Origin: Clostridia bacterium
GTDB lineage: Bacteria > Bacillota > Clostridia > JAAYHZ01
Assembly (NCBI GenBank): GCA_050950825.1
Contig: JBMNIH010000004.1
Location: 512,001 to 576,000 of the forward strand
Length of the DNA stretch: 64,000 bases
Direction of reading: 5' to 3'
Shown: piece by piece, positions 3,693 to 57,673 of the stretch
Position numbering within the stretch: position 1 is the stretch's first letter
Layout: every line of letters starts with the position of its first letter
Notes under the pieces: generated by a model
The model's database searches: none
The model's input: only the letters and a program-made list of their open reading frames with translations
Told to the model about the DNA's origin: nothing
Translations under genes and position numbers: made by a program

Positions 3693-4205
3693 ATGAAATT
3701 TGACATAACCGATATTAAAAAAGAATCGGGAGCCGTTATGGAAATTCGATACCAAGGCCCCCTTGTTCAAGATGATTTGTATGACATGATCTCCGTGAAG
3801 GACGATGTCTTGATAGAAGGTACCTTGACCAATCAAGGAGAGGAAATATTCCTTTCCGGAGTGTTGAAATTAACATACACAGGACAATGCGCCAGATGTT
3901 TAAAACCGGTAACAAGAACCATGACCTTACAGTTAAATGAAAGATTTTCTTCTCGAGATACCGATGATGACGATGTGTATCCCTATGAAGGAAATTTTGT
4001 GGATTTGACAAAGACCGTAAATGATAATATAATTGTCGCGTTGCCTGTAAGATTGTTGTGTTCCGAGCAGTGCAAGGGTCTTTGCCCGGTATGCGGGAAA
4101 AACCTCAACCAAGGTTCTTGCCAATGCAGACCGGAACAAGAAGATAAGAAACAAGAAAAAACCGAGAACCCCTTCGGTATATTAAAAGATTACTTTAGCC
4201 ATTAA
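3693..4205 (+). CDS. yceD: YceD/DUF177 family protein
   Basis: CARCL and LCSEQCKGLCPVCG motifs; directly upstream of rpmF. Confidence 0.9.
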   Translation: MKFDITDIKKESGAVMEIRYQGPLVQDDLYDMISVKDDVLIEGTLTNQGEEIFLSGVLKLTYTGQCARCLKPVTRTMTLQLNERFSSRDTDDDDVYPYEGNFVDLTKTVNDNIIVALPVRLLCSEQCKGLCPVCGKNLNQGSCQCRPEQEDKKQEKTENPFGILKDYFSH

Positions 4206-4544: not shown

Positions 4545-5879
4545 ATGGTCAAAAAACGCGGATTGATTTGTAAAGTTGAAGAAGGCTCCATTGCAGAACA
4601 AGCGGGAATCGAAAAAGGCGATGTTTTACTGTCCGTTAACGGACAAGACATCACGGATATTTTTGATTACCGTTTTTTCACTGCCGATGAAAACATATTG
4701 GTGGCCATCCGAAAACCCAATGGAGAAACATGGGAAATCGATATTGAAAAAGACCCTTACGAAGATTTAGGTATCGAATTCGATCCGCCCCTCATCGACC
4801 AAGAAAAATCCTGCAGAAACAAGTGTATTTTTTGCTTTATCGACCAACTGCCTCCCGCCATGCGGGATACGCTGTATTTTAAAGACGATGACGCCCGACT
4901 ATCCTTTTTAACCGGAAACTATGTGACGCTGACCAATTGCAATAATGATGATCTTGAGCGCATTATTAAGTACAAGCTTTCTCCCGTAAATATATCGGTT
5001 CACGCTACCGATCCCGAAGTAAGGCGAAAAATGATGAACAATCGCTTCGCCGGCAAAATTATGGAACAAATAGCCTTGTTGACGAAGAATAACATCACGG
5101 TAAATTGCCAATTGGTCGTATGTAAAGGCATTAATGACGGAAAAATATTAGAGAAGTCGATTCAAGACCTGGCGGAATATTACCCCGACGTAAACAGCAT
5201 TTCCGTTGTACCGGTCGGATTGACGGCGCATCGGGAAAAATTGTTCCCTTTAGAACCTTTTAAAAAAGAAGAAGCGTTGGAAATCATTCATACCGTGGAA
5301 AAGTTTCAGGAGCGATATTTAAAAGAAAAAGGTTCAAGAATCGTTTTTATCGCCGACGAGTTTTATGTTTTGGCGGAGAAAGATTATCCCGATTACGATG
5401 CATACGAATCCTTTCCGCAATTGGAAAACGGGGTAGGTCTTTTGGCATCCTTTGAAAAAGAATTCAACGATGCTTTCGAGGAAACGCAACCGCTGAAAAA
5501 AGCCCTATACGGCGGAAAACGGGAAACGATTTCGATTGCAACGGGAAAAGCCGCCGAAAACTATATACGAAGGCTTTGCCAAAAAGTAACCGCCGTATAC
5601 CCCGTCAATATCCAAGTGTTTGGTATTGAGAACCGATTTTTCGGAACCTCCGTTACCGTTGCCGGCTTGTTGACCGGCCAAGACATAGCGGCACAGCTTA
5701 TAGGCAAGGATTTGGGAAGCCGCTTGCTATTGCCGGAAACCGTGTTTCGTGCGGGGGAGAGAACCTTTTTGGACGATATGACTTTAGAAGACTTGGAAAA
5801 AGCTTTAAAGGTAAAGGTCGTGGCAGTGAGGAATAACGGGGAAGAATTTTTGAAAAACCTTTTAGGAGTTGAGATATGA
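4545..5879 (+). CDS. DUF512 family PDZ plus radical-SAM-like protein
   Basis: N-terminal PDZ-like segment, CRNKCIFC motif, KDDDARLSFL and QLENGVG. Confidence 0.88.
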   Translation: MVKKRGLICKVEEGSIAEQAGIEKGDVLLSVNGQDITDIFDYRFFTADENILVAIRKPNGETWEIDIEKDPYEDLGIEFDPPLIDQEKSCRNKCIFCFIDQLPPAMRDTLYFKDDDARLSFLTGNYVTLTNCNNDDLERIIKYKLSPVNISVHATDPEVRRKMMNNRFAGKIMEQIALLTKNNITVNCQLVVCKGINDGKILEKSIQDLAEYYPDVNSISVVPVGLTAHREKLFPLEPFKKEEALEIIHTVEKFQERYLKEKGSRIVFIADEFYVLAEKDYPDYDAYESFPQLENGVGLLASFEKEFNDAFEETQPLKKALYGGKRETISIATGKAAENYIRRLCQKVTAVYPVNIQVFGIENRFFGTSVTVAGLLTGQDIAAQLIGKDLGSRLLLPETVFRAGERTFLDDMTLEDLEKALKVKVVAVRNNGEEFLKNLLGVEI

Positions 5880-7201
5880 CAAAGCCCATTGTAGCAATCG
5901 TAGGCAGACCGAATGTTGGAAAATCAACATTATTTAACTACTTGGCGGGAAAGAGAATATCCATTGTGGAAGATACACCCGGCATTACCCGTGACCGCGT
6001 GTATGCAAACAGCGAATGGTTAGGGAAAGAGTTTGTCCTAATCGATACCGGAGGTATCGAGCCGGAACCGAGCGACGACATTACGGCTGCGATTAAAACC
6101 CAAGCGGAGATTGCCATAGAGTCCGCCGATGTCATCCTGTTTTTAACCGATGCCAAAAGCGGTTTGTTGGAAGCCGACAAGGAAATTGCCCAAATGCTGC
6201 GTATGTCTAAAAAGCCGGTTGTTACGGTGGTCAATAAAGTGGATACGCCCGGAAGCCCCCCTTTACACGTTTATGACTTTTACGAACTGGGGTTGGGAGA
6301 GGTGTATACCATTTCGTCCATCCACGGAATGGGCATCGGCGATGTTTTAGATGAGGTCATCTCCTACTTCCCGGATGAAACCCATGAAGGCGAAGAAACC
6401 GACGCCATCAAAGTGGCGGTAATCGGAAAGCCCAATTCCGGAAAATCGTCTTTGATTAATAAAATTCTCGGCTACGAACGGGTGCTGGTCTCCGATGTTC
6501 CCGGTACGACGAGGGATGCCATTGACTCGGAAGTAGAGTTCAACGGCAAGAAGTATATTTTTATCGACACCGCCGGTATACGAAGAAAGAGCAAGATCAG
6601 CGACAATATCGAAAGGTACTCGGTACTTCGGTCTTTTCGCGCCATTGAGCGTGCCGATGTTTGCATCCTGATGGTGGACGGTTCCGAAGGAATTACGGAC
6701 CAAGACGCAAAAATTGCGGGATACGCCCATGATGAAGGAAAATCCATTATTGTTGCCATCAATAAATGGGATATGGTAGAAAAAGACACCAAAACCGTGA
6801 ATGAGTTTTACGAAAATACCTTCCGGGTGCTGTCCTTTATGACCTATGCTCCCATGGTAACCATATCCGCGCTTACGGGGCTTCGAGTCAACCGGTTGTT
6901 TCCTTTAATCGACGAAATTTATGAACAAGCATCTTTAGAGGTTCCCACCGGTATGTTGAACGACATCTTGTCCGAAGCCGTAGCGATGGTACAGCCGCCT
7001 TCGCATAAAGGGAAGCGTTTAAAAATATACTATATTACCCAAGTAGGGGTAAGACCTCCGAAGTTCGTTTTGTTTGTGAACGATCTTCAATTAATGCATT
7101 ATTCCTATGAACGATATATTGCCAATAAGCTGAGAGAGGCTTTTGAATTCAAAGGAACTTCCATAAAATTTATTATCCGAGAAAGAAACGAAAAAGTGTG
7201 A
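5876..7201 (+). CDS. der: Ribosome biogenesis GTPase Der (EngA)
   Basis: Two G domains (GRPNVGKS, GKPNSGKS; DTGG, DTAG) plus a KH-like C-terminus. Confidence 0.97.
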   Translation: MTKPIVAIVGRPNVGKSTLFNYLAGKRISIVEDTPGITRDRVYANSEWLGKEFVLIDTGGIEPEPSDDITAAIKTQAEIAIESADVILFLTDAKSGLLEADKEIAQMLRMSKKPVVTVVNKVDTPGSPPLHVYDFYELGLGEVYTISSIHGMGIGDVLDEVISYFPDETHEGEETDAIKVAVIGKPNSGKSSLINKILGYERVLVSDVPGTTRDAIDSEVEFNGKKYIFIDTAGIRRKSKISDNIERYSVLRSFRAIERADVCILMVDGSEGITDQDAKIAGYAHDEGKSIIVAINKWDMVEKDTKTVNEFYENTFRVLSFMTYAPMVTISALTGLRVNRLFPLIDEIYEQASLEVPTGMLNDILSEAVAMVQPPSHKGKRLKIYYITQVGVRPPKFVLFVNDLQLMHYSYERYIANKLREAFEFKGTSIKFIIRERNEKV

Positions 7202-48677: not shown

Positions 48678-50044
48678 TGTGGATATACACGCTTTTACCT
48701 CAAATTCTAAACATGAGCATAACGGCAAGCATAGTTATCATTCTCGTACTTGCAGCCCGATTCCTATTGAAAAAAGCACCGAAGGTATTTTCATATGCCC
48801 TTTGGGCTGTTGTTCTTTTCCGCCTTATTTGCCCCGTATCTTTTTCATCTCCAATTTCATTGATAGGGTTCATTTATCCTTCGGCAAGAACGGTTGACAA
48901 TGGCGCTTACAGCAGTCTCACTTATATCCCTACGGATATGGTACCGCAGGTGGATTTACCGGTACCGGGTATTAATGGAGCCTTACATGGCATCCTGCAT
49001 GAGGGCGGGGAGGGGACTTCCGGCGCTTCGCTTGAATTCCCGATGGCTTTTGCCACAATGCTCTGGCTTTTCGGTATCGGGGTAATGATGATATACGGCG
49101 CAGTTTCATTAATCCGCTTGCGTAGAAAGCTCACCGGCGCCGTCCGGCTGCGGGAAAACATCTATCTTGCCGACCATATCGTCACTCCGTTTGTTATCGG
49201 CATACTGCGTCCGAAAATTTATCTCCCTTCGACGCTTCGGGGGGAAGAACAGAGCTATGTTATCCTGCATGAACAGACGCATATCCGTCGACAGGACCAT
49301 CTTGTTAAAATGTTTGCTTTCCTCGTTTTGGTTGTTCATTGGTTTAATCCGCTTGTATGGGTTGCTTTTGTATTTATCGTTAAAGATATGGAGATGTCCT
49401 GCGACGAGCGGGTCATAAAGCTCATGGGTGACGATATCCGCGGTGAATACTCGACGTCTTTGCTGTCTTTATCGGCGGGGAAGCGCCTGATAAACGGCGG
49501 TATGCCTGCCTTCGGCGAGGAGAATATCAAGGGACGTATCAGGAACGTCATGAACTATAAAACACCGGCGGCTTGGGTTGTTATCCTTTCAATATTATTT
49601 GTGGTCGCTCTGAGCGTAGGTTTAGCGTTGAACAAGTATTTGGTTACATTGAATGTGGAAAATATTGCCGATGCCATTCTCACAACCGAGATAGAAGGAT
49701 GGTACCCGCTTGCAAAAGGCACGCCGTATCATCTCAATGAAGAGGAATTAAATTCTATCATCGAGTTGGTTAATAAATCATCGAAAAAACCCATTTTAGA
49801 TAAATACAAGCCAACCTACGGAGATCTGTATAAGACGTATTGCACAATTCAATTCGTGATGGCAGGTGCAAACGGCGTACCCGAAGGAACGTACAGGCTT
49901 CAGCTATACAATCATAAGGATTGGAACATCCTTCGCGGTGAAAGCGAGTATAAGCTTGCGCTCGTTGATACCGACGGAAATAAAATGTGGCAGCTCTCGT
50001 ATGATACATGTTACCAATTTAAGAGCCGCTCGAACAATATTTAA
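48677..50044 (+). CDS. M56 family (BlaR1-like) metallopeptidase sensor
   Basis: LWAVVLFRL, HEQTHIRR.DH, HWFNP and EMSCDE. Confidence 0.88.
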   Translation: MWIYTLLPQILNMSITASIVIILVLAARFLLKKAPKVFSYALWAVVLFRLICPVSFSSPISLIGFIYPSARTVDNGAYSSLTYIPTDMVPQVDLPVPGINGALHGILHEGGEGTSGASLEFPMAFATMLWLFGIGVMMIYGAVSLIRLRRKLTGAVRLRENIYLADHIVTPFVIGILRPKIYLPSTLRGEEQSYVILHEQTHIRRQDHLVKMFAFLVLVVHWFNPLVWVAFVFIVKDMEMSCDERVIKLMGDDIRGEYSTSLLSLSAGKRLINGGMPAFGEENIKGRIRNVMNYKTPAAWVVILSILFVVALSVGLALNKYLVTLNVENIADAILTTEIEGWYPLAKGTPYHLNEEELNSIIELVNKSSKKPILDKYKPTYGDLYKTYCTIQFVMAGANGVPEGTYRLQLYNHKDWNILRGESEYKLALVDTDGNKMWQLSYDTCYQFKSRSNNI

Positions 50045-50276
50045 ATCGATTGAATTCCTCTGAAGAAAATATGGACATCGGATAAAAGGAATGATTGCCT
50101 CATTCGTTTGAAAATCACGAATATGATAGACGTGATGAGTTTGATATAAAGTGTACCCTTTGTCAAGGACAAAATGAGTTTTTGATTTCAATTCATAAAT
50201 GAGTATTCAGTGGCTGTTGATTCACCTGTCCCGGACTTTGAGTACTACCATACCGGTGTTTCGGAGTCAGGTTTCC

Positions 50277-50447
50277 GCATTTATTCCACGATCCTCTTGA
50301 CAACGAGCCTCTGCCGGCATGTTTGCTGGCATCAGAGGCATCCCCCATGCTGAACAAGGCAGAAGGGCTCTGGAGGTGGTTGATGCCCGGTCAGATAGCC
50401 TAACATGCCGGGCTCTCATTGTCAAGAGGCTTTCGCGGCATAAACGC
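50277..50447 (-). other. Conserved long-hairpin element containing a sigma70-type promoter, copy A (inside IS3)
   Basis: Nested inverted repeats; homologous to 55274-55439; TTGACA-17-TAGGCT on the minus strand. Confidence 0.75.
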
Positions 50448-50457
50448 TGCCTTCCCA

Positions 50458-51417
50458 TCAGCTCTCCTTGAATCCATTTGGCTTGGGTATATTTAGTGGA
50501 TACTCGCCAGTTGTTAAATATTTGTAATACTCTGCAGGAGATAGCTTTGCTAAATCCCATTGATATCTTTCGTAGTTATAATACTCTGTCCAGTCAGTTA
50601 TTGCTGATAGGATTTCTTCATAAGTGTTACACTCTTCGATATGAATTTCATCCTTCATATGTCCGAAGAAGGACTCTTGCGGAGCGTTATCCCAGCAGTT
50701 TGCCCTTCTGGACATTGACTGCCTTAATTCGCTGTTTTTAATCAGCTGTATAAAACTAAGACTAGTGTAATGTGACCCTTGATCACTGTGGATTAGGGTT
50801 TCTGCCGTTAAGGAAATCCCATGTTTTTCAATGAGCTGATTCACTGTCTCAAGTACAAAATCAACTTCCAAAGATGGACTCACTACCCATGCTAGGAGTT
50901 CTTTTGTACAGGCATCTATAATAGTAGACATATAGCATCTAGGTGCTCTACCGTTAATAATATATGTGATATCTGTAAGCAGAACTTTCCGTGGTCCATG
51001 TTCCTCAAACTCGCGATTCAGGAGATTTGGAGCGACATAGGAAGTACCTATCGCTTTTGCTATACGTCTGTATGGATTTGCTTTGCGAATTGGGCATTTT
51101 AATCCATACTTCTTCATAAGACGCCGAATCTTTTTTATGTTCATGACAACCGGTGGAGTCTGATGCAGTAATCTCATATAAATCCCACGTGCACCCTTAT
51201 CATATCCTCTGTGTTTATATGCTTCTATGATGAGAAGAAAATCCTGTTGATCCTGTTCTTCTTTCTGTTTTCTAACTTCTTCTGTAGTGAGATAGTGATA
51301 ATAGCCGGATCTAGAAACACCAGCGATTTCGCACAGGACAGAAACATTTAAAAGATTCCCATGCAGTGCTACTGTTTCTTGTATGATTTTATACTTGGCA
51401 TTTGCAGGAATGATCAT
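50458..51417 (-). CDS. IS3 OrfB DDE transposase
   Basis: TDITY, HSDQGSHY, SRRANCWDNAPQESFF and YYN.ER. Confidence 0.95.
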   Translation of the reverse strand: MIIPANAKYKIIQETVALHGNLLNVSVLCEIAGVSRSGYYHYLTTEEVRKQKEEQDQQDFLLIIEAYKHRGYDKGARGIYMRLLHQTPPVVMNIKKIRRLMKKYGLKCPIRKANPYRRIAKAIGTSYVAPNLLNREFEEHGPRKVLLTDITYIINGRAPRCYMSTIIDACTKELLAWVVSPSLEVDFVLETVNQLIEKHGISLTAETLIHSDQGSHYTSLSFIQLIKNSELRQSMSRRANCWDNAPQESFFGHMKDEIHIEECNTYEEILSAITDWTEYYNYERYQWDLAKLSPAEYYKYLTTGEYPLNIPKPNGFKES

Positions 51418-51818
51418 AATTCCCGTGCCTCCGGATCTAAAGATACAATTTTTTTTAGAAACTCTATCTCTTGCTCCTTATATGCCAGTTGCATCTCTAG
51501 GTATTTAATCCTGTTTTCTGCTGACATATAGCCGTTTCCAGCTTGCATATAAGTATTCAAGTCACGGAATCCATTGCCTTTTTTTACTTCATTACGGATC
51601 ATTGTTTTTAATCCGCCAATCCTTATTTCGCCTAGTATCTCGGGATTAATGCCAAGAGATTTAACTATATCTTTTGGTAATTTCCCTTGCATTAGTGCAT
51701 TCCAGAATTCTTTTTTGAATTCCGCAGAGAAGTGTACAGTGCTTGGTGATACATCCAGAACATACTTGCTTTTTCTTAACTCGGACATTTCTTCTGGGGT
51801 AAATTTCTTATTTGCCAT
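51414..51818 (-). CDS. IS3 OrfA
   Basis: Upstream of orfB; ends EIEFLKK on an A8 run; ATGA overlap with orfB. Confidence 0.85.
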   Translation of the reverse strand: MANKKFTPEEMSELRKSKYVLDVSPSTVHFSAEFKKEFWNALMQGKLPKDIVKSLGINPEILGEIRIGGLKTMIRNEVKKGNGFRDLNTYMQAGNGYMSAENRIKYLEMQLAYKEQEIEFLKKIVSLDPEAREL

Positions 51819-51882
51819 ATATGCCTCCAATCCAACTACATTTATTGTAATATGCATCTGAATTGAAGTCAAAAACTGTTCT

Positions 51883-52030
51883 TGTCCGGAATATAGGGTT
51901 TTGAAAATGCATGTGTCCGAACAACAGGGATTATATAAAATCTATTGTCCGAAATGTAGGGTTTTTTCAAAAACCTAATGTCCGATGGTAAGGGTTTTGA
52001 AAACCCAAAGTGTCCAAGCTATAGGGTACA
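51883..52030 (+). repeat. Five tandem TGTCC-N7-AGGG motifs at the IS3 left end
   Basis: Starts at 51883, 51914, 51946, 51979 and 52011 (31-33 bp period); the last copy is within the terminal IR. Confidence 0.85.
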
Positions 52031-52080
52031 TTATAGATAGTTGCGACGAGATAAAAACAATGTTTTGCCCTGAAATGTCA

Positions 52081-52105
52081 AAAACCCTTGCAGCGCAAGG
52101 GTTTT
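52081..52105 (-). terminator. Hairpin downstream of tRNA-Ala
   Basis: AAAACCCTTG-cagcg-CAAGGGTTTT. Confidence 0.6.
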
Positions 52106-52116
52106 CGGTCAAAATG

Positions 52117-52192
52117 TGGTGGAGACGAAGGGACTCGAACCCTCGACCTTTCGGATGCGAACCGAACGCTCTCCCAGCTGAGCTACGCCCCC
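52117..52192 (-). tRNA. tRNA-Ala (CGC)
   Basis: GGGGGCGTAGCTCAGCTGGGAGAGCGTTCGGTTCGCATCCGAA...GTTCGAGTCCCTTCGTCTCCACCA; G3:U70 pair. Confidence 0.96.
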
Positions 52193-52303
52193 ATACAAAC
52201 GAGAATATTATACCACATTTTAAATTTTCGTAAATAGAGTATAGAGTATTATCAAAGAAATCAAAAACTTTTTACAAATGACGATGAGCCTATACCGGTA
52301 CCT

Positions 52304-53791
52304 TTATAATACCTTTAAAAGGTCCTGCAGTAACAACCAAGCTTTTTCGTCTATCGCTTTGCATTCGTCAATAAGATAACCGATTTTTTCACGTATTTCA
52401 CGGGATGCAAGCGCTTGAATCTGTTTCTCTCCGCGCTCCCAACCGCCCAATACTTGGTACATTTTTAATGCGCACGCCGCCGATTCGGCAAATCGTTCCG
52501 CAATTTTTGCATATAACGGTTGCTTCGGATTTTTATCGGCCAGCTTTTTAAAGTATTTATATGCGTTTTTACGCCCGTCGGCAAGACAATCTACGGCATC
52601 TTGATGACACATAAGTCGTTCCACAAGCAGGGAGCTTACCATGTCTTTATTGATTTGACTTTCGTCCAATAGAGCCTTTTTCCATGCTTCATAAGCATAT
52701 CCGGCTTTTGCATATTCATAATGCCTTCTCGGCGTCATAACCTCGATAGCGTTTTCAACGACGTTTCTTACCGTGTATCTTTTGCCGGTGATTTCCCCGA
52801 ATGACATAAGTGCATTGGTACTTTGATTTTCCCACCACCGGTCGGTTATATAATAACCGGATTCGTCAAAACGTACGTTTGCAGCATATTCCGAGTAATT
52901 CTGAAACACGTTCCATCCTAATAGGATATTGCCGTTATCGCGATAACCGGTTATGATTCCCGGTTCGGGAGGACCGATGACACCCCTTGCGATCACCGGG
53001 ATACCGTTATCAATTTTTTCTTTAATGAAGTTTATAAACTCGGCCTTTTGGGTTGTTTGCGATCGGCCGATCAGATTGAATTGACAACCTATAGACTCGA
53101 TGGCACGGCGGAACACCTTGGAAGGGTCGTCAAATGTAAAAATATCGCCCACGTTACCTCCGTCCCAAGTCGTTTCGTTCCAACTAAGGCGAAAAGCCAT
53201 ACCGCAATAGACGATTGCATCCGTATAGTCCAGCTCAATCCCCATGTAATTCGCCGCCGCTTTCATACAAATCGGTAGGGGAGTGATCCCGCCGAACGCA
53301 CCGTAATGAACCTTAGGAACACCGTATAAAACAACGCTTCCGTCCGATACATGTCTTTGTTCATGGTTATTCATTTTTACAATCCCTTCCTTTTCTTTTT
53401 GAGAAACCGGATTGAAATTTATAGATACGCCGAAAACACCGGCAGTTAAAACGGTACGGCCGACAGATCGTTTTTGTCTTCGAAAATCGCTCGGATTAAA
53501 ACCGGTAATACGCTTGAAAGCTCTTGTAAAAGAATCCGGATTTGAAAAACCGTATTTTGTAGCAATGTCCAAGATATTTTTATCACTATGAGAGATGTCA
53601 AAAGCCGCATGTGCAATTCTTCTGCTTAAAACGTAGCGGGATAAGGATTTTCCCGTCAGCTTGGAAAAAACGGATCGAATATGCGACAGAGAAAACCCCA
53701 CCGCCTTTTCAAGCTCCGCATACTCGAAACCGGTTTGTAACCTATTTTCAACGAATATAATGACCGAAGAAACCATAACATATTGATCCAT
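52304..53791 (-). CDS. AraC-family regulator with N-terminal HTH and a large uncharacterised C-terminal domain
   Basis: ILDIATKYGFSNPDSFTRAFKRITG.NPS. Confidence 0.85.
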   Translation of the reverse strand: MDQYVMVSSVIIFVENRLQTGFEYAELEKAVGFSLSHIRSVFSKLTGKSLSRYVLSRRIAHAAFDISHSDKNILDIATKYGFSNPDSFTRAFKRITGFNPSDFRRQKRSVGRTVLTAGVFGVSINFNPVSQKEKEGIVKMNNHEQRHVSDGSVVLYGVPKVHYGAFGGITPLPICMKAAANYMGIELDYTDAIVYCGMAFRLSWNETTWDGGNVGDIFTFDDPSKVFRRAIESIGCQFNLIGRSQTTQKAEFINFIKEKIDNGIPVIARGVIGPPEPGIITGYRDNGNILLGWNVFQNYSEYAANVRFDESGYYITDRWWENQSTNALMSFGEITGKRYTVRNVVENAIEVMTPRRHYEYAKAGYAYEAWKKALLDESQINKDMVSSLLVERLMCHQDAVDCLADGRKNAYKYFKKLADKNPKQPLYAKIAERFAESAACALKMYQVLGGWERGEKQIQALASREIREKIGYLIDECKAIDEKAWLLLQDLLKVL

Positions 53792-54039
53792 CACATCACA
53801 ACCGTTCATTTCCTCTATATGGAGTGATGTCAGTATATCATACGAAAAAAATATCTTCTCGACTTTTTTAATGATGTTAAATGAAAACCCAAACGAATTG
53901 TGTTATTTAAGATAACAACATTCATGCCGAGATAAGGGACGATTAAGTCTATATAATGGTGTAAAAAGAAGTTGAGCCAAAGCTCATACCTCGGTTAGAA
54001 TATAAGTGTCATCAAATACCAAACCGAGGAGGATGAACC

Positions 54040-55254
54040 ATGGCTCAGTTTAATATTACAATAACCGAAAAACTTTTGCACGGACTATTTTTATCAAACG
54101 GCAGGGATGAAGCATTTTCCAAGCTATTAGAGGAAATCTTCAACCAGGTACTATTAGCCCAATCTTCAGAACAGGTAGGAGCTGAACCCTATGAGAGAAC
54201 TGAAGAAAGAACTGCCTACCGCAATGGTTTTCGAGACAGACAGATGACTACTCGAGTTGGCACACTTACTCTGCGGGTCCCCAGGCATCGCAATGGTAAG
54301 TTTTCTACAGAGCTGTTTGCCCGATATCAACGCAGTGAACAGGCCTTGATACTGGCCATGATGGAGATGGTGATTAATGGGGTTTCAACTCGTAAAGTTG
54401 AAGCCATCACACAAGAGCTCTGTGGTAAATCGTTTTCTAAATCCACAGTTTCAGCTCTTTGTAAGCAGCTGGATCCCATGGTTCACGCTTTTAGGACAAG
54501 ACCGCTTGAAAGTCATTATCCCTTTCTAATTGTAGATGCTCTTTACCTTAAGGTGCGTGAAGATCATCGGGTTGAGTCAAGAGGATTACTCATCGCCGTA
54601 GGTGTCAACGAAGAAGGTTATCGCGAAATTATTGGCTTTCAGGTGGCTAACACAGAAACTGAAAGCAGTTGGGGGGAATTCTTCGCATCCCTAAAGGAAA
54701 GGGGATTAAAAGACGTTCGCTTAATTACATCCGACAATCACAAGGGGCTTGTCAATGCAGTCAAGAGACATTTTCAAGGAGCAACCTGGCAACGATGTCA
54801 AACCCATTTTTCAAGGAACATGCTGGATCACACTCCTAAAGCACTACAGCCTGTTATCAAAGAAGATCTTCGTGAGCTGTATGAAGCTGTTGACTTAGAT
54901 AGCGCTCGAAAGGTCAGAGATCAGCTCCTTGGTAAATACGGGACGATAGCTCCAAAAGCTGCTACTCTATTAGACGAATCCTTCGATGATGTCACGGCGA
55001 TTCTGGCAGTGCCCCTGAAATATCGAAAGCGACTACGTACTACAAACGGCGTGGAACGGCTCAATCAGGAAGTGAGGCGGCGAGAGCGGGTAATACGCAT
55101 CTTCCCTAATGAGGCATCCGTAATCCGCTTGATAGGTGCCCTGCTTATGGAACAAGATGAAAAGTGGCAAGCAGGCCGTAAATACTTTGATATGGATTTA
55201 TATTATCAAAGTATGGAAAACAAGAAAACCAAGGATAGAAACCCTGCTGCCTAG
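54040..55254 (+). CDS. IS256-family transposase
   Basis: YRNG, GVSTRKV, VDALY, SDNHKGL, WQRCQTHF and RTTNGVERLNQE. Confidence 0.96.
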   Translation: MAQFNITITEKLLHGLFLSNGRDEAFSKLLEEIFNQVLLAQSSEQVGAEPYERTEERTAYRNGFRDRQMTTRVGTLTLRVPRHRNGKFSTELFARYQRSEQALILAMMEMVINGVSTRKVEAITQELCGKSFSKSTVSALCKQLDPMVHAFRTRPLESHYPFLIVDALYLKVREDHRVESRGLLIAVGVNEEGYREIIGFQVANTETESSWGEFFASLKERGLKDVRLITSDNHKGLVNAVKRHFQGATWQRCQTHFSRNMLDHTPKALQPVIKEDLRELYEAVDLDSARKVRDQLLGKYGTIAPKAATLLDESFDDVTAILAVPLKYRKRLRTTNGVERLNQEVRRRERVIRIFPNEASVIRLIGALLMEQDEKWQAGRKYFDMDLYYQSMENKKTKDRNPAA

Positions 55255-55273
55255 GGTACCTACTACTATCATT

Positions 55274-55439
55274 GCATTTATTCCACGGTCTGTTGACAAC
55301 GAGCCTCTCATGGCCTGTTTATATGCATCAGAGCCATCCCCATTGTTTTATCGATATGTCTTACGCTGGAGTGGTGATGCCTGGCAATCAGCCTAACATG
55401 CCATGTACTCATTATCAACAGCTTTCGCGGCATAAAAGC
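55274..55439 (-). other. Conserved long-hairpin element containing a sigma70-type promoter, copy B (inside IS256)
   Basis: Homologous to 50277-50447 with compensatory changes; TTGATA-17-TAGGCT on the minus strand. Confidence 0.75.
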
Positions 55440-56031
55440 TTTCGTCTGGTCCGGTTGATAACATCAATGTCCTTTAGCATACCGGCTGGACAAACCGAGG
55501 TAATTTACACACTATTTTGGACTTGACTCACATTCACATTGTGGTGGTTTCTTTTTGTGTTGCGAATTGATAAAACGCATAATCATTATATAACAGTTTA
55601 TTAAAATGTGAATACATACTATTTATAATATTTTCCGGCTATAAAATTATTACCTGAAATATTTGTAAGTGTCAAAGAAATCAATACATAGAATAAAGCC
55701 TCTGTAGATAGTACCATCATAATTAAACGTGGTTGGTAAAGTCGAAAAAGATGAAAAGTTAAATGCGAAAAAAGTCCTCTAATAACAGAGGTCTTTTAAA
55801 ATGCTTCATGGTAGGTTGTGGCCGGTCTTGCGTTTTCGCCGTCCTATCCACCCTACATTTGTTTGAAACTATATTTACGCTTTCAATTATTTCTTACCTA
55901 ATCCAAACAACAATTGAATAACCGTTTCGACAATCTTCTATTCGGATTCTTCCATTTCTATATCAAACTCATTACATAATTTTAATGTATAAGACAGAGC
56001 AGCATTGGCTCTTTTTTCTTTTGGGATCTTA

Positions 56032-57673
56032 TCATTGAAAGTTTTTATGTATTCCAAACTTATTGTCTACCAAATCGCTTTTTAAATAATAAAACCCTTG
56101 CAGTACAAGGGTTTTGTTGGTGGAGGCGAGCCGTACCTCCCCATATCCACAACCACCCTCGTATATGTTATGCCGACTCATGTCAATTGAGTGAATATCA
56201 AGCGTATCATCGTAGACGATAACTTTCTTGACATATGTTTGGATAATTTGCTTTTGCTCTTCCGGAGTTCTGCTCCTTATGTCGGCATCCTTAGCCAGAT
56301 ATGCTCTTATCATTTCTTCCGAAGGGGCATGAGCTTGAGCTTGGATCTTGGCTTCCTCGATCTTCAACTCGAGAGCCGATCTCTTCGCTTCGAGTTCGTC
56401 CATCTTTTCTTTCATGCTCGGGTGAAACATCCCTGCGGCTATGGCATTGACGATATTATTGATTTCGGTCTTAATGCCTGTCAAACGGTCCGTAAACGCT
56501 TTTATATCTCTGTCGATCTCTTTCGTTTGCTCGGCCGCATATTCCATTACCTTCTTGGCGATCGTGTCAATGGCCTCGGGGGAGAATACGTTTTTCTCCA
56601 GATATTCTATCACGATATTTTCAACGTAATCCTTTCGGATGTTTTTCATATCGCAGCTCTTTGTTCGCTTGCGAATAGAGCACTCATAAGTCACCTGCAG
56701 AGTTTTATTCCTGCCCGCATATCTTCGATTGCCGACCATGGCTCCGCCGCATTTACCGCAGAAAATGATACCCAGATAATAAGATACGTCTCTTTCGCCT
56801 TGTTCGCCGCTCGGACCTCGTTTCATTCTTTCTCCATTCTCGCTTGCACCCTCTCCCAGGCTTCGTCCGTCTATGATCCGAGGCATGCCGCCCTCGATTC
56901 TTGATAATCTCCTCCTCACTTTTGCTTTTGCGGTGGTTACGCTTTCCGTCTGATTTTTCGGATCGGAGCGATTGAATATGTAAACGCCACGATACTTTTC
57001 ATTTTATAAGTATCTCGTGCAAGCCGTTCTTCCCGAAACGGCCTGCCGGTCTTGTGTCCTGCAGCCAGTCTTGATTCAGCTGCTACGTATAATTTCGCCG
57101 TATCCAGAGCCAGCAGGCATACATCTCATAGATATAGCCTGTACGAGCCGGCGACTTCGTGCTCGTTGATAATGTAGGTGCCGTCCGGGGCTACGTCGTA
57201 TCCCAGCGGAGGTTTCCCGCCGGTATGTTTGCATTGCAGGGCAGTCTCTCTCATGCCCTTCATGACTTCCCGGGCAAGGTTTCGGCTGTAATATTCGGCC
57301 ATTCCCTCAAGGACGGATTCAAGAATAATGCTTTCCGGACTATCGTCCAGGTTTTCGAGAACCGATATAAGCCTGACACCGTTCTTCTTTAGCTGACGCT
57401 TATAAAATGCGGAATCATACCTATCTCGGCTGAACCGGTCCAGCTTATGTGAACGATGACAGCAGCAAACAGACCCAGGGCGCTGTCCTGTATCATCTGC
57501 AGAAAGCCAGGTCTGTCATCTGTTGTTGCGCTCCGGGCTTCATCAGTATATATCTTGACAAGGCGGATCCCATTTCTATCACAGTATTCACGGATAGCGC
57601 GAAGCTGAGCTTCTATTGATTCTTCGCGCTGGTTGTCACTGCTATACCTTGCGTACGCTGCTGCTTTGATCAT
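56032..57673 (-). pseudogene. Large serine recombinase (integrase) with multiple frameshifts
   Basis: AAAYARYSSDNQREESIEAQ, recombinase-domain pieces, Zn ribbon CGKCG and coiled coil are spread over several frames. Confidence 0.85.

Follow-up and report, generated by a model that had tools for sequence, protein, structure and literature searches.

What would lead two insertion sequences (ISs) with unrelated transposases to carry the same hairpin of about 170 nt? The question is raised by a 64,000-nt stretch of the genome of a Clostridia bacterium (contig JBMNIH010000004.1, positions 512,001 to 576,000; hereafter the window, to which all coordinates refer), in which one copy of the hairpin lies in an IS3-family element (50277..50447, minus strand) and another in an IS256-family element (55274..55439, minus strand). 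Judged by sequence and predicted structure, both copies are very probably homologues of the ssoA-type (palA-like) single-strand origins (sso) of plasmids. The hairpin is a member of an already described class of DNA element, and only its location in ISs is new.

Structure and orientation of the two window copies

Copy 1 lies between the stop codon of orfB and the end of the IS3 element, and copy 2 lies about 85 bp from the right end of the IS256 element; the two are 74% identical by blastn. A sequence-only reading of this DNA had described six sequence blocks common to both stretches, a fold of each copy into one long interrupted hairpin, and compensatory changes between the copies (CTCTTG/CAAGAG versus CTGTTG/CAACAG and CCGG versus CATG). 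All six blocks are present where they had been placed, both copies form such hairpins of about 170 nt when both strands are folded, and the compensatory changes are real. The choice of the minus strand as the folded one was likewise upheld: G-U pairs were seen on that strand, which is further favored because its fold z scores are lower with RNA parameters (-5.06 and -5.70, versus -3.36 and -1.85 for the plus strand) and DNA parameters (-5.14 and -4.02, versus -3.12 and -1.17) alike. A covariance model, R1, built on the minus strand from ten copies of this genome only, gave 177.8 bits for copy 1 and 184.7 bits for copy 2, with an overall range of 150-201 bits on the model strand and 27-48 bits on the reverse strand.

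The loop-distal 5' side of each stem contains the motif TTTATGCCGCGAAAG on the minus strand (50430..50444 in copy 1 and 55422..55436 in copy 2), which matches the RSB sequence given in a passage of PMC6395029 at 13 of 15 bases and is invariant across the 10 rows of the alignment of this genome's copies. The 3' arm of copy 1, CGTGGAATAAATGC (50277..50290, minus strand), is the partner of the RSB region, and helix 2 is paired at 99.8%. Reading the minus strand also confirmed the promoter-like stretch that had been proposed, with TTGACA at 50425-50420, a 17-nt spacer, TG at 50405-50404, and TAGGCT at 50402-50397 in copy 1 (50397..50425), and TTGATA at 55418-55413, 17 nt, TG, and TAGGCT at 55395-55390 in copy 2 (55390..55418). 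The -10 hexamer does not lie mostly in an asymmetric bubble, as had been suggested; the consensus fold pairs four of its six bases, beside an internal loop. In ssoA-type origins, the CS-6 sequence (5'-TAGCGT/A-3') occupies the terminal loop, where the primer RNA ends. Copy 2 has the CS-6-like CAGCGT (55363..55368, minus strand; 5/6 to TAGCGT) in its apical part, 21 nt past the -10. Finally, we confirmed that the orientation of the hairpin relative to the transposase is opposite between the IS3 and IS256 elements.

Short open reading frames (ORFs) cross the hairpin, and a small-protein reading was dropped because indels change the frame among variants. An attC-like site was also considered, since GCCTAAC fits the R'' consensus, and was rejected, as by eye the partner site and the site order do not fit.

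Relation to plasmid single-strand origins

In a blastn comparison with plasmids, a window copy gave a single 36-nt match in its outer ~36 nt, which was the lead to plasmid origins. Although R1 contains only sequences of this genome, it matched a non-coding stretch of an 8-kb Bacillus sonorensis plasmid that carries rep and MobV genes (L064, 3875-4043; 69.3 bits, E = 3e-18), pFL5 (72-240; 63.5 bits, E = 2.6e-16), pC194 (2038-2217; 40.6 bits, E = 4e-10), pT181 (3760-3936, just past the relaxase gene; 35.2 bits, E = 7e-9), and pE194 (631-805; 29.8 bits, E = 4e-7). The origin of pUB110 gave no R1 match (9.2 bits, E = 0.088), and we rejected identity with ssoU, which we take pUB110 to carry, just as we take pC194 and pE194 to be of the palA type. 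Origins of the pTA1060/pTA1040 type were rejected as well, since R1 did not match those of pTA1060 (6349-6549) or pTA1040 (5109-5307) at E <= 0.1 with filters off, at coordinates taken from a section of PMC4595007. Thus, R1 recognized 3/3 ssoA plasmids tried (pT181, pC194, and pE194) and 0/3 others (pUB110, pTA1060, and pTA1040).

An excerpt of PMC5703833 names the pT181 origin palA/ssoA and describes it as a stretch of about 160 nt that folds once single-stranded, is primed by RNA polymerase, and works in only one orientation. The sequence TTTATGCCGAGAAAA is present in the pT181, pC194, and pE194 matches, and the consulted passage of PMC6395029 gives it as the RSB sequence typical of sso, beside the CS-6 TAGCGA. 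The RSB sits at the loop-distal part of the stem (PMC8860593), as does TTTATGCCGCGAAAG in the window copies, on the 5' side; RSB has also been reported in ssoU, ssoT, and ssoW (PMC5703833, in part). We identify the hairpin as an ssoA-type origin because R1 matches the classical origins and the RSB is present. These findings, together with promoter-like hexamers that are kept family-wide, bear out the likeness to rolling-circle sso that the sequence-only reading had raised. By cmscan of 49500-56500 against Rfam, including 6S RNA, no family matches the hairpin at E <= 1, the only matches being a tRNA and a chance match elsewhere.

Like ssoA/palA of pT181, pC194, and pE194, the window hairpins are non-coding and about 160-180 nt long, form a single long imperfect hairpin on just one strand, place the RSB on the 5' side away from the loop, and have promoter-like hexamers within the stem. 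They differ in residing in chromosomal ISs rather than on a plasmid that also has a Rep gene and double-strand origin, in an RSB that deviates at 2/15 bases, and in a CS-6 that is weak or absent in most members. The unannotated hairpins of small Bacillus rolling-circle plasmids (pFL5 and the B. sonorensis plasmid) have outer stems nearly identical to those of the window copies (TTTATGCCGCGAAAG, TTGACA, GAGGCTCGTTGTCAA, and CCGTGGAATAAA), whereas their apical part differs and they are hosted by plasmids carrying rep and MobV genes. Of the 80 plasmid records that contain the B. sonorensis version, 76 are from Bacillus, and most are 4-14 kb in size. A passage of PMC4595007 describes sso1 of ICEBs1, likewise a plasmid-type, orientation-specific origin on a non-plasmid mobile element, where it is needed once the element is single-stranded. 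In contrast to the window hairpins, sso1 resembles the pTA1060/pBAA1 origin that R1 does not recognize, and it resides not in an IS but in a conjugative element that has its own relaxase and replicates by rolling circle. Single-strand initiation signals such as Frpo of the F plasmid in enterobacteria, a single-stranded hairpin that rebuilds a -35 and -10 and on which RNA polymerase makes a primer, are alike in working principle.

Conservation of pairing and promoter-like sequence

A species-level scan (one genome per species) for an RSB variant plus the 3' motif yielded at least 112 stretches, 80 of which were used; these 80 came almost all from Clostridia assemblies, with a few from Bacillus and Peribacillus. 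When 60 same-class relatives were searched with R1, 9 had the element. Across 92 distinct sequences, 93.6% of cells were paired, compared with 73.3% in shuffles and 34-45% with a slid partner, and 38/52 pairs had changes on both sides, in an alignment that was fitted to the model and in which most rows were pre-selected for the exact RSB and 3' motif. Conservation of these two motifs in the family alignment is by construction because the supplying scan required both exactly.

The promoter-like part was assessed in 90 sequences. The -35 had at most one mismatch from TTGACA in 76/90, TG preceded the -10 in 68/90, and the -10 read TAGGCT in 55/90 at the sequence level. Spacing between the hexamers, for which the sequence-only reading had proposed a comparison among homologues, is conserved at 16-18 nt. 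Of TATAAT, only T1, A2, and T6 are retained in the -10 (a 3/6 match in 66/90), and a generic sigma-70 promoter scan does not list the hairpin promoter because of this 3/6 match. A -10 this weak fits a promoter for a partly mismatched hairpin, and not for duplex DNA.

Distribution of the hairpin within the genome

We searched the genome assembly (3.55 Mb in 11 contigs) and found 29 copies of the hairpin, which fall into six sequence variants residing in three IS families (one IS3, three IS256, and two ISLre2 types). Variant A (13 copies) belongs to an ISLre2-family element with a 509-aa transposase, variant B (5 copies) to the window's IS3 element, variant C (3 copies) to the window's IS256 element, variant D (6 copies) to a second IS256, variant F (1 copy) to a third IS256, and variant E (1 copy) to a second, very different ISLre2. 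All 29 copies lie within IS boundaries, on contigs of 119-728 kb, and one is shortened by a nested insertion; none stands alone outside an IS. The original proposal that the hairpins lie inside the IS3 and IS256 elements therefore stood, and its restriction to two ISs did not, given 29 copies in six IS types. The RSB lies on the transposase coding strand in IS3 and both ISLre2 types, whereas in the three IS256 types it lies on the template strand. This genome is rich in repeated mobile elements, with at least a dozen families of 3-14 copies each, including IS1182, IS1634, IS4, IS91, IS21-like elements, and a group II intron.

The part of bioRxiv 10.1101/2023.06.07.543989 available to us lists IS3, IS21, IS30, IS256, IS110, and ISLre2 as copy-out/paste-in families that form circles. 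Within 600 bp of IS1182-like elements (13 copies), IS1182 (6), IS1634 (4), IS4 (4), IS91 (4), and the group II intron (5), no hairpin was found. Among IS types, 6 of about 10 from copy-out families bear the hairpin versus 0/5 from other families (Fisher p ~0.04 by hand calculation, with types that are few and not independent).

Similar divergence of transposases (77-86% identical) and hairpins (77-85%) among the three IS256 types fits common descent of the hairpin with its host. The two ISLre2 transposases are only 25% identical and the IS3 transposase is unrelated to either, whereas the hairpins of these elements share 64-76% identity, a likeness that points to repeated separate uptake; by these identities, at least three or four uptake events would have occurred. 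The divergence of hairpins relative to transposases thus fits the earlier suggestion of an independent module in unrelated ISs.

Hairpin contexts in other genomes

For 93 loci from other genomes, we counted neighbors within 500 bp. A transposase was a neighbor at 32/93 loci: IS256 at 15 (13 on the opposite strand and 2 distant members on the same strand), ISLre2 at 4, IS3 at 4, IS30 at 3, an IS21 helper at 2, and an unclassified DDE protein at 4. A large serine recombinase adjoined 17/93 loci, and 44/93 had none of the tested neighbors. Ten of these 44 were viewed, which revealed IS110 at two, a MobV relaxase at one, a Xer-like recombinase at one, and ordinary genes at six. Because serine recombinases adjoin many of the loci and a MobV relaxase adjoins one, the hairpin is not IS specific; it accompanies mobile DNA of Clostridia in general rather than ISs alone. 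Outside this genome, IS30, IS21, and IS110 transposases were recorded as neighbors of the hairpin.

The same-strand IS256 members (L121 and L125) have transposases 44-47% identical to that of the window. In 23/80 of the Clostridia loci used (of at least 112), about 20 bp separate the origin from the end of a large serine recombinase gene on the opposite strand, as at L117:3793-5559. Loci of this kind are probably integrative or mobilizable elements with their own sso.

A possible role in transposition

On plasmids, RNA polymerase binds the RSB region and hairpin promoter of ssoA and makes a short primer RNA that DNA polymerase extends. Origins of this type are active only when their strand is single-stranded, and rolling-circle plasmids without an sso build up single strands in Firmicutes. 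Because sso-less plasmids accumulate single strands, an origin carried by the IS itself could increase the number of circles able to integrate. As for copy-out transposition, a passage of bioRxiv 10.1101/2023.06.07.543989 describes the circular copy as being synthesized from the second 3'-OH, which acts as primer, and an excerpt of PMC7780238 describes conversion of the figure-eight into a double-stranded circle by replication. In line with the cis module for priming a single-stranded IS intermediate that the sequence-only reading had suggested, we propose that formation of the figure-eight would circularize one IS strand, which synthesis from the flanking 3'-OH would then displace. The displaced strand would fold at the ssoA-like origin, and RNA polymerase would prime conversion of this single strand into a double-stranded IS circle that then integrates. 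The active strand would be the minus strand of the window, corresponding to the strand that codes for the transposase in IS3 and ISLre2 and to the template strand for it in IS256.

We judge the chances about even that copy-out/paste-in elements adopted an ssoA-type origin to prime second-strand synthesis, with both activity and role inferred. The broader proposition, that copy-out transposition in Firmicutes proceeds via a free or displaced single-stranded IS circle generated, as in rolling-circle replication, by strand-displacement synthesis, and that unrelated ISs each took up plasmid ssoA as a tradable fitness module on which host RNA polymerase would prime the second strand, is one we advance tentatively, as somewhat short of an even chance. 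The presence of the hairpin in IS3, IS256, and ISLre2 elements suggests, as a testable hint, a single-stranded IS form whose conversion limits transposition. If such a form exists, the orientation of the origin would indicate the donor strand and donor end of each IS, and the donor strand could be read from sequence alone. The finding also extends the known range of ssoA-type origins beyond the small plasmids of Bacilli to mobile elements on Clostridia chromosomes, and the Clostridia hairpins could serve as host-adapted vector origins. A full-text literature search that left most subscription journals and ISfinder notes uncovered returned no report of an sso within an IS. The nearest report concerns a different matter, IS5-family inverted repeats upstream of a plasmid's own sso that alter host range (PMC12016507).

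A public DNA contig from run X8 (depth 3) connects 55528 to 53941, the two ends of the window's IS256 element, across 6 bases, the junction expected of a circular or head-to-tail tandem form of this element. Spacers of 6-8 bp for ISCth4 and of 5, 6, 7, and 19 bp for IS256 are given in the excerpt of PMC7780238. No junction of IS3 inverted repeats was listed among the contigs, which is no evidence of its absence. Two other contigs, both of low depth and with short sides, skip the interior of copy 1 (50302->50422 in DNA run X8 and 50311->50415 in RNA run X16); they may represent variants that lack the apical part, or jumps made at an inverted repeat during copying or assembly.

Several observations weigh against a role of the hairpin in priming IS circles. 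Sister ISs of the same families in this genome, IS256 (7 copies), IS3 (6), and ISLre2 (4), have no hairpin within 600 bp, and the origin is therefore dispensable for these families. IS91, which is thought to move by rolling-circle transposition, is also without the hairpin in all 4 of its copies. In other genomes, about half of the loci are without a nearby transposase (44/93 with none of the tested neighbors), and large serine recombinases adjoin 17/93 loci, or 23/80 by clustering (the 80 used of at least 112), with a MobV relaxase at one. Orientation is not fixed even within IS256, as 13 close relatives place the hairpin opposite to the transposase strand and two distant ones on the same strand. 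Since either end of an IS256-family element can donate in vitro (PMC7780238, excerpt), a strand-specific origin would serve only some events. With regard to the hairpin itself, the pairing frequencies carry the fitting and pre-selection described above, part of the apparent compensation in the -35 helix is a one-base register shift, a loose CS-6 pattern ([TC]AG[CA]G[TAC]) occurs within 45 nt of the -10 in only 19/90 sequences, and the IS3 copy has CAGAGC, only 3/6 to CS-6.

Alternative explanations

Rather than acting for the IS, the origin may serve whatever rolling-circle, conjugative, or mobilizable replicon carries the IS by converting its single strands to duplex, with the IS hitch-hiking on this benefit. 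We consider this explanation unlikely, while more deserving of attention than the others discussed here. It draws on a part of PMC4595007 according to which sso activity is important to conjugative elements, several of which carry sso-like sequences, and on a passage of PMC5703833 that reports ssoA origins to be host restricted. Large serine recombinases at 23/80 of the loci used (at least 112 found) and a MobV relaxase at one locus elsewhere in Clostridia would suit it, as would the B. sonorensis version on its 80 small plasmid records. In this genome, however, 29/29 copies reside in ISs on contigs of 119-728 kb, any gain would fall to the carrier and in only one of the two insertion orientations, and the restriction of the hairpin to copy-out elements would be left unexplained.

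We regard as improbable that the hairpin acts as an ordinary duplex promoter or as an RNA, whether as a promoter pointing out of IS3 and ISLre2, an antisense RNA against the IS256 transposase, a 3' stabilizer or terminator, or a 6S-like decoy. The -35, spacing, and TG are conserved, the fold is good with RNA parameters too, and contigs from RNA libraries span both ISs of the window, including the hairpins. Contigs, however, cannot give RNA ends or strand, and the breaks at 50421 and 50450 in the RNA-library contigs overlap by 30 bases, as occurs when repeats interrupt an assembly. The -10 matches TATAAT at only 3/6 positions in 66/90 sequences and is omitted by a generic scan, orientation relative to the transposase varies between families, and the plasmid homologues of the hairpin are DNA origins. 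If transcription began after the -10, the RNA would lack the 5' arm and could not form the conserved hairpin; this point and the lack of a match at E <= 1 in Rfam, which includes 6S, speak against the RNA polymerase-decoy RNA that the sequence-only reading had offered as one possibility. Slightly less probable still, in our view, is a functionless passenger, either a relic of RSB recombination with plasmids or a hairpin resembling a miniature inverted-repeat transposable element (MITE) that landed in ISs. According to the consulted section of PMC5703833, RSB was originally described as the site of recombination that produces plasmid cointegrates, and many ISs of the same families do without the hairpin. 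A passenger would not be expected to keep its RSB, hexamers, and pairing, with compensatory change, across ISs with unrelated transposases, nor to be retained at 77-85% identity in three IS256 types with transposases 77-86% identical. No direct repeats flank the hairpin where the variant flanks diverge (alignment by eye), and with 0/29 solo copies outside ISs, we rejected a MITE. Priming of second-strand synthesis by an adopted ssoA-type origin is the reading that we prefer.

Host elements and neighboring features

Boundaries of both ISs were set by the extent of identity among genomic copies together with contig starts and ends. The IS3-family element, present in about five genomic copies, spans 1889 bp on the minus strand (50147..52035) and encodes orfA with an HTH_Tnp_2 domain (51414..51872, minus strand) and orfB with an rve integrase core (50458..51417, minus strand; NF033516, 254.8 bits). 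A 41-nt inverted repeat at 50155/51859 is internal and does not mark the IS ends, which are at 50147 and 52035. Two 21-nt direct repeats (51882-51902 and 51945-51965, 63 bp apart) in the non-coding left part of the element, upstream of orfA, may be subterminal transposase-binding repeats. The IS256-family element spans 1588 bp on the plus strand (53941..55528), is present in three genomic copies, and encodes a transposase of 404 aa (54040..55254, plus strand; NF033543, 396.6 bits).

Between the two ISs lies a tRNA gene (52120-52192, minus strand; Rfam, 64.1 bits), 85 bp from the IS3 end at 52035. A 25-nt palindrome, AAAACCCTTGCAG..CAAGGGTTTT, occurs at 52081-52105 and again at 56091-56115, with 92% likeness between the copies, one of which adjoins the tRNA gene; it looks like a terminator-type hairpin. 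To the right of the IS256 element, a minus-strand ORF (56150-57000 and beyond; 295 aa) resembles by eye the C-terminal part of a large serine recombinase.

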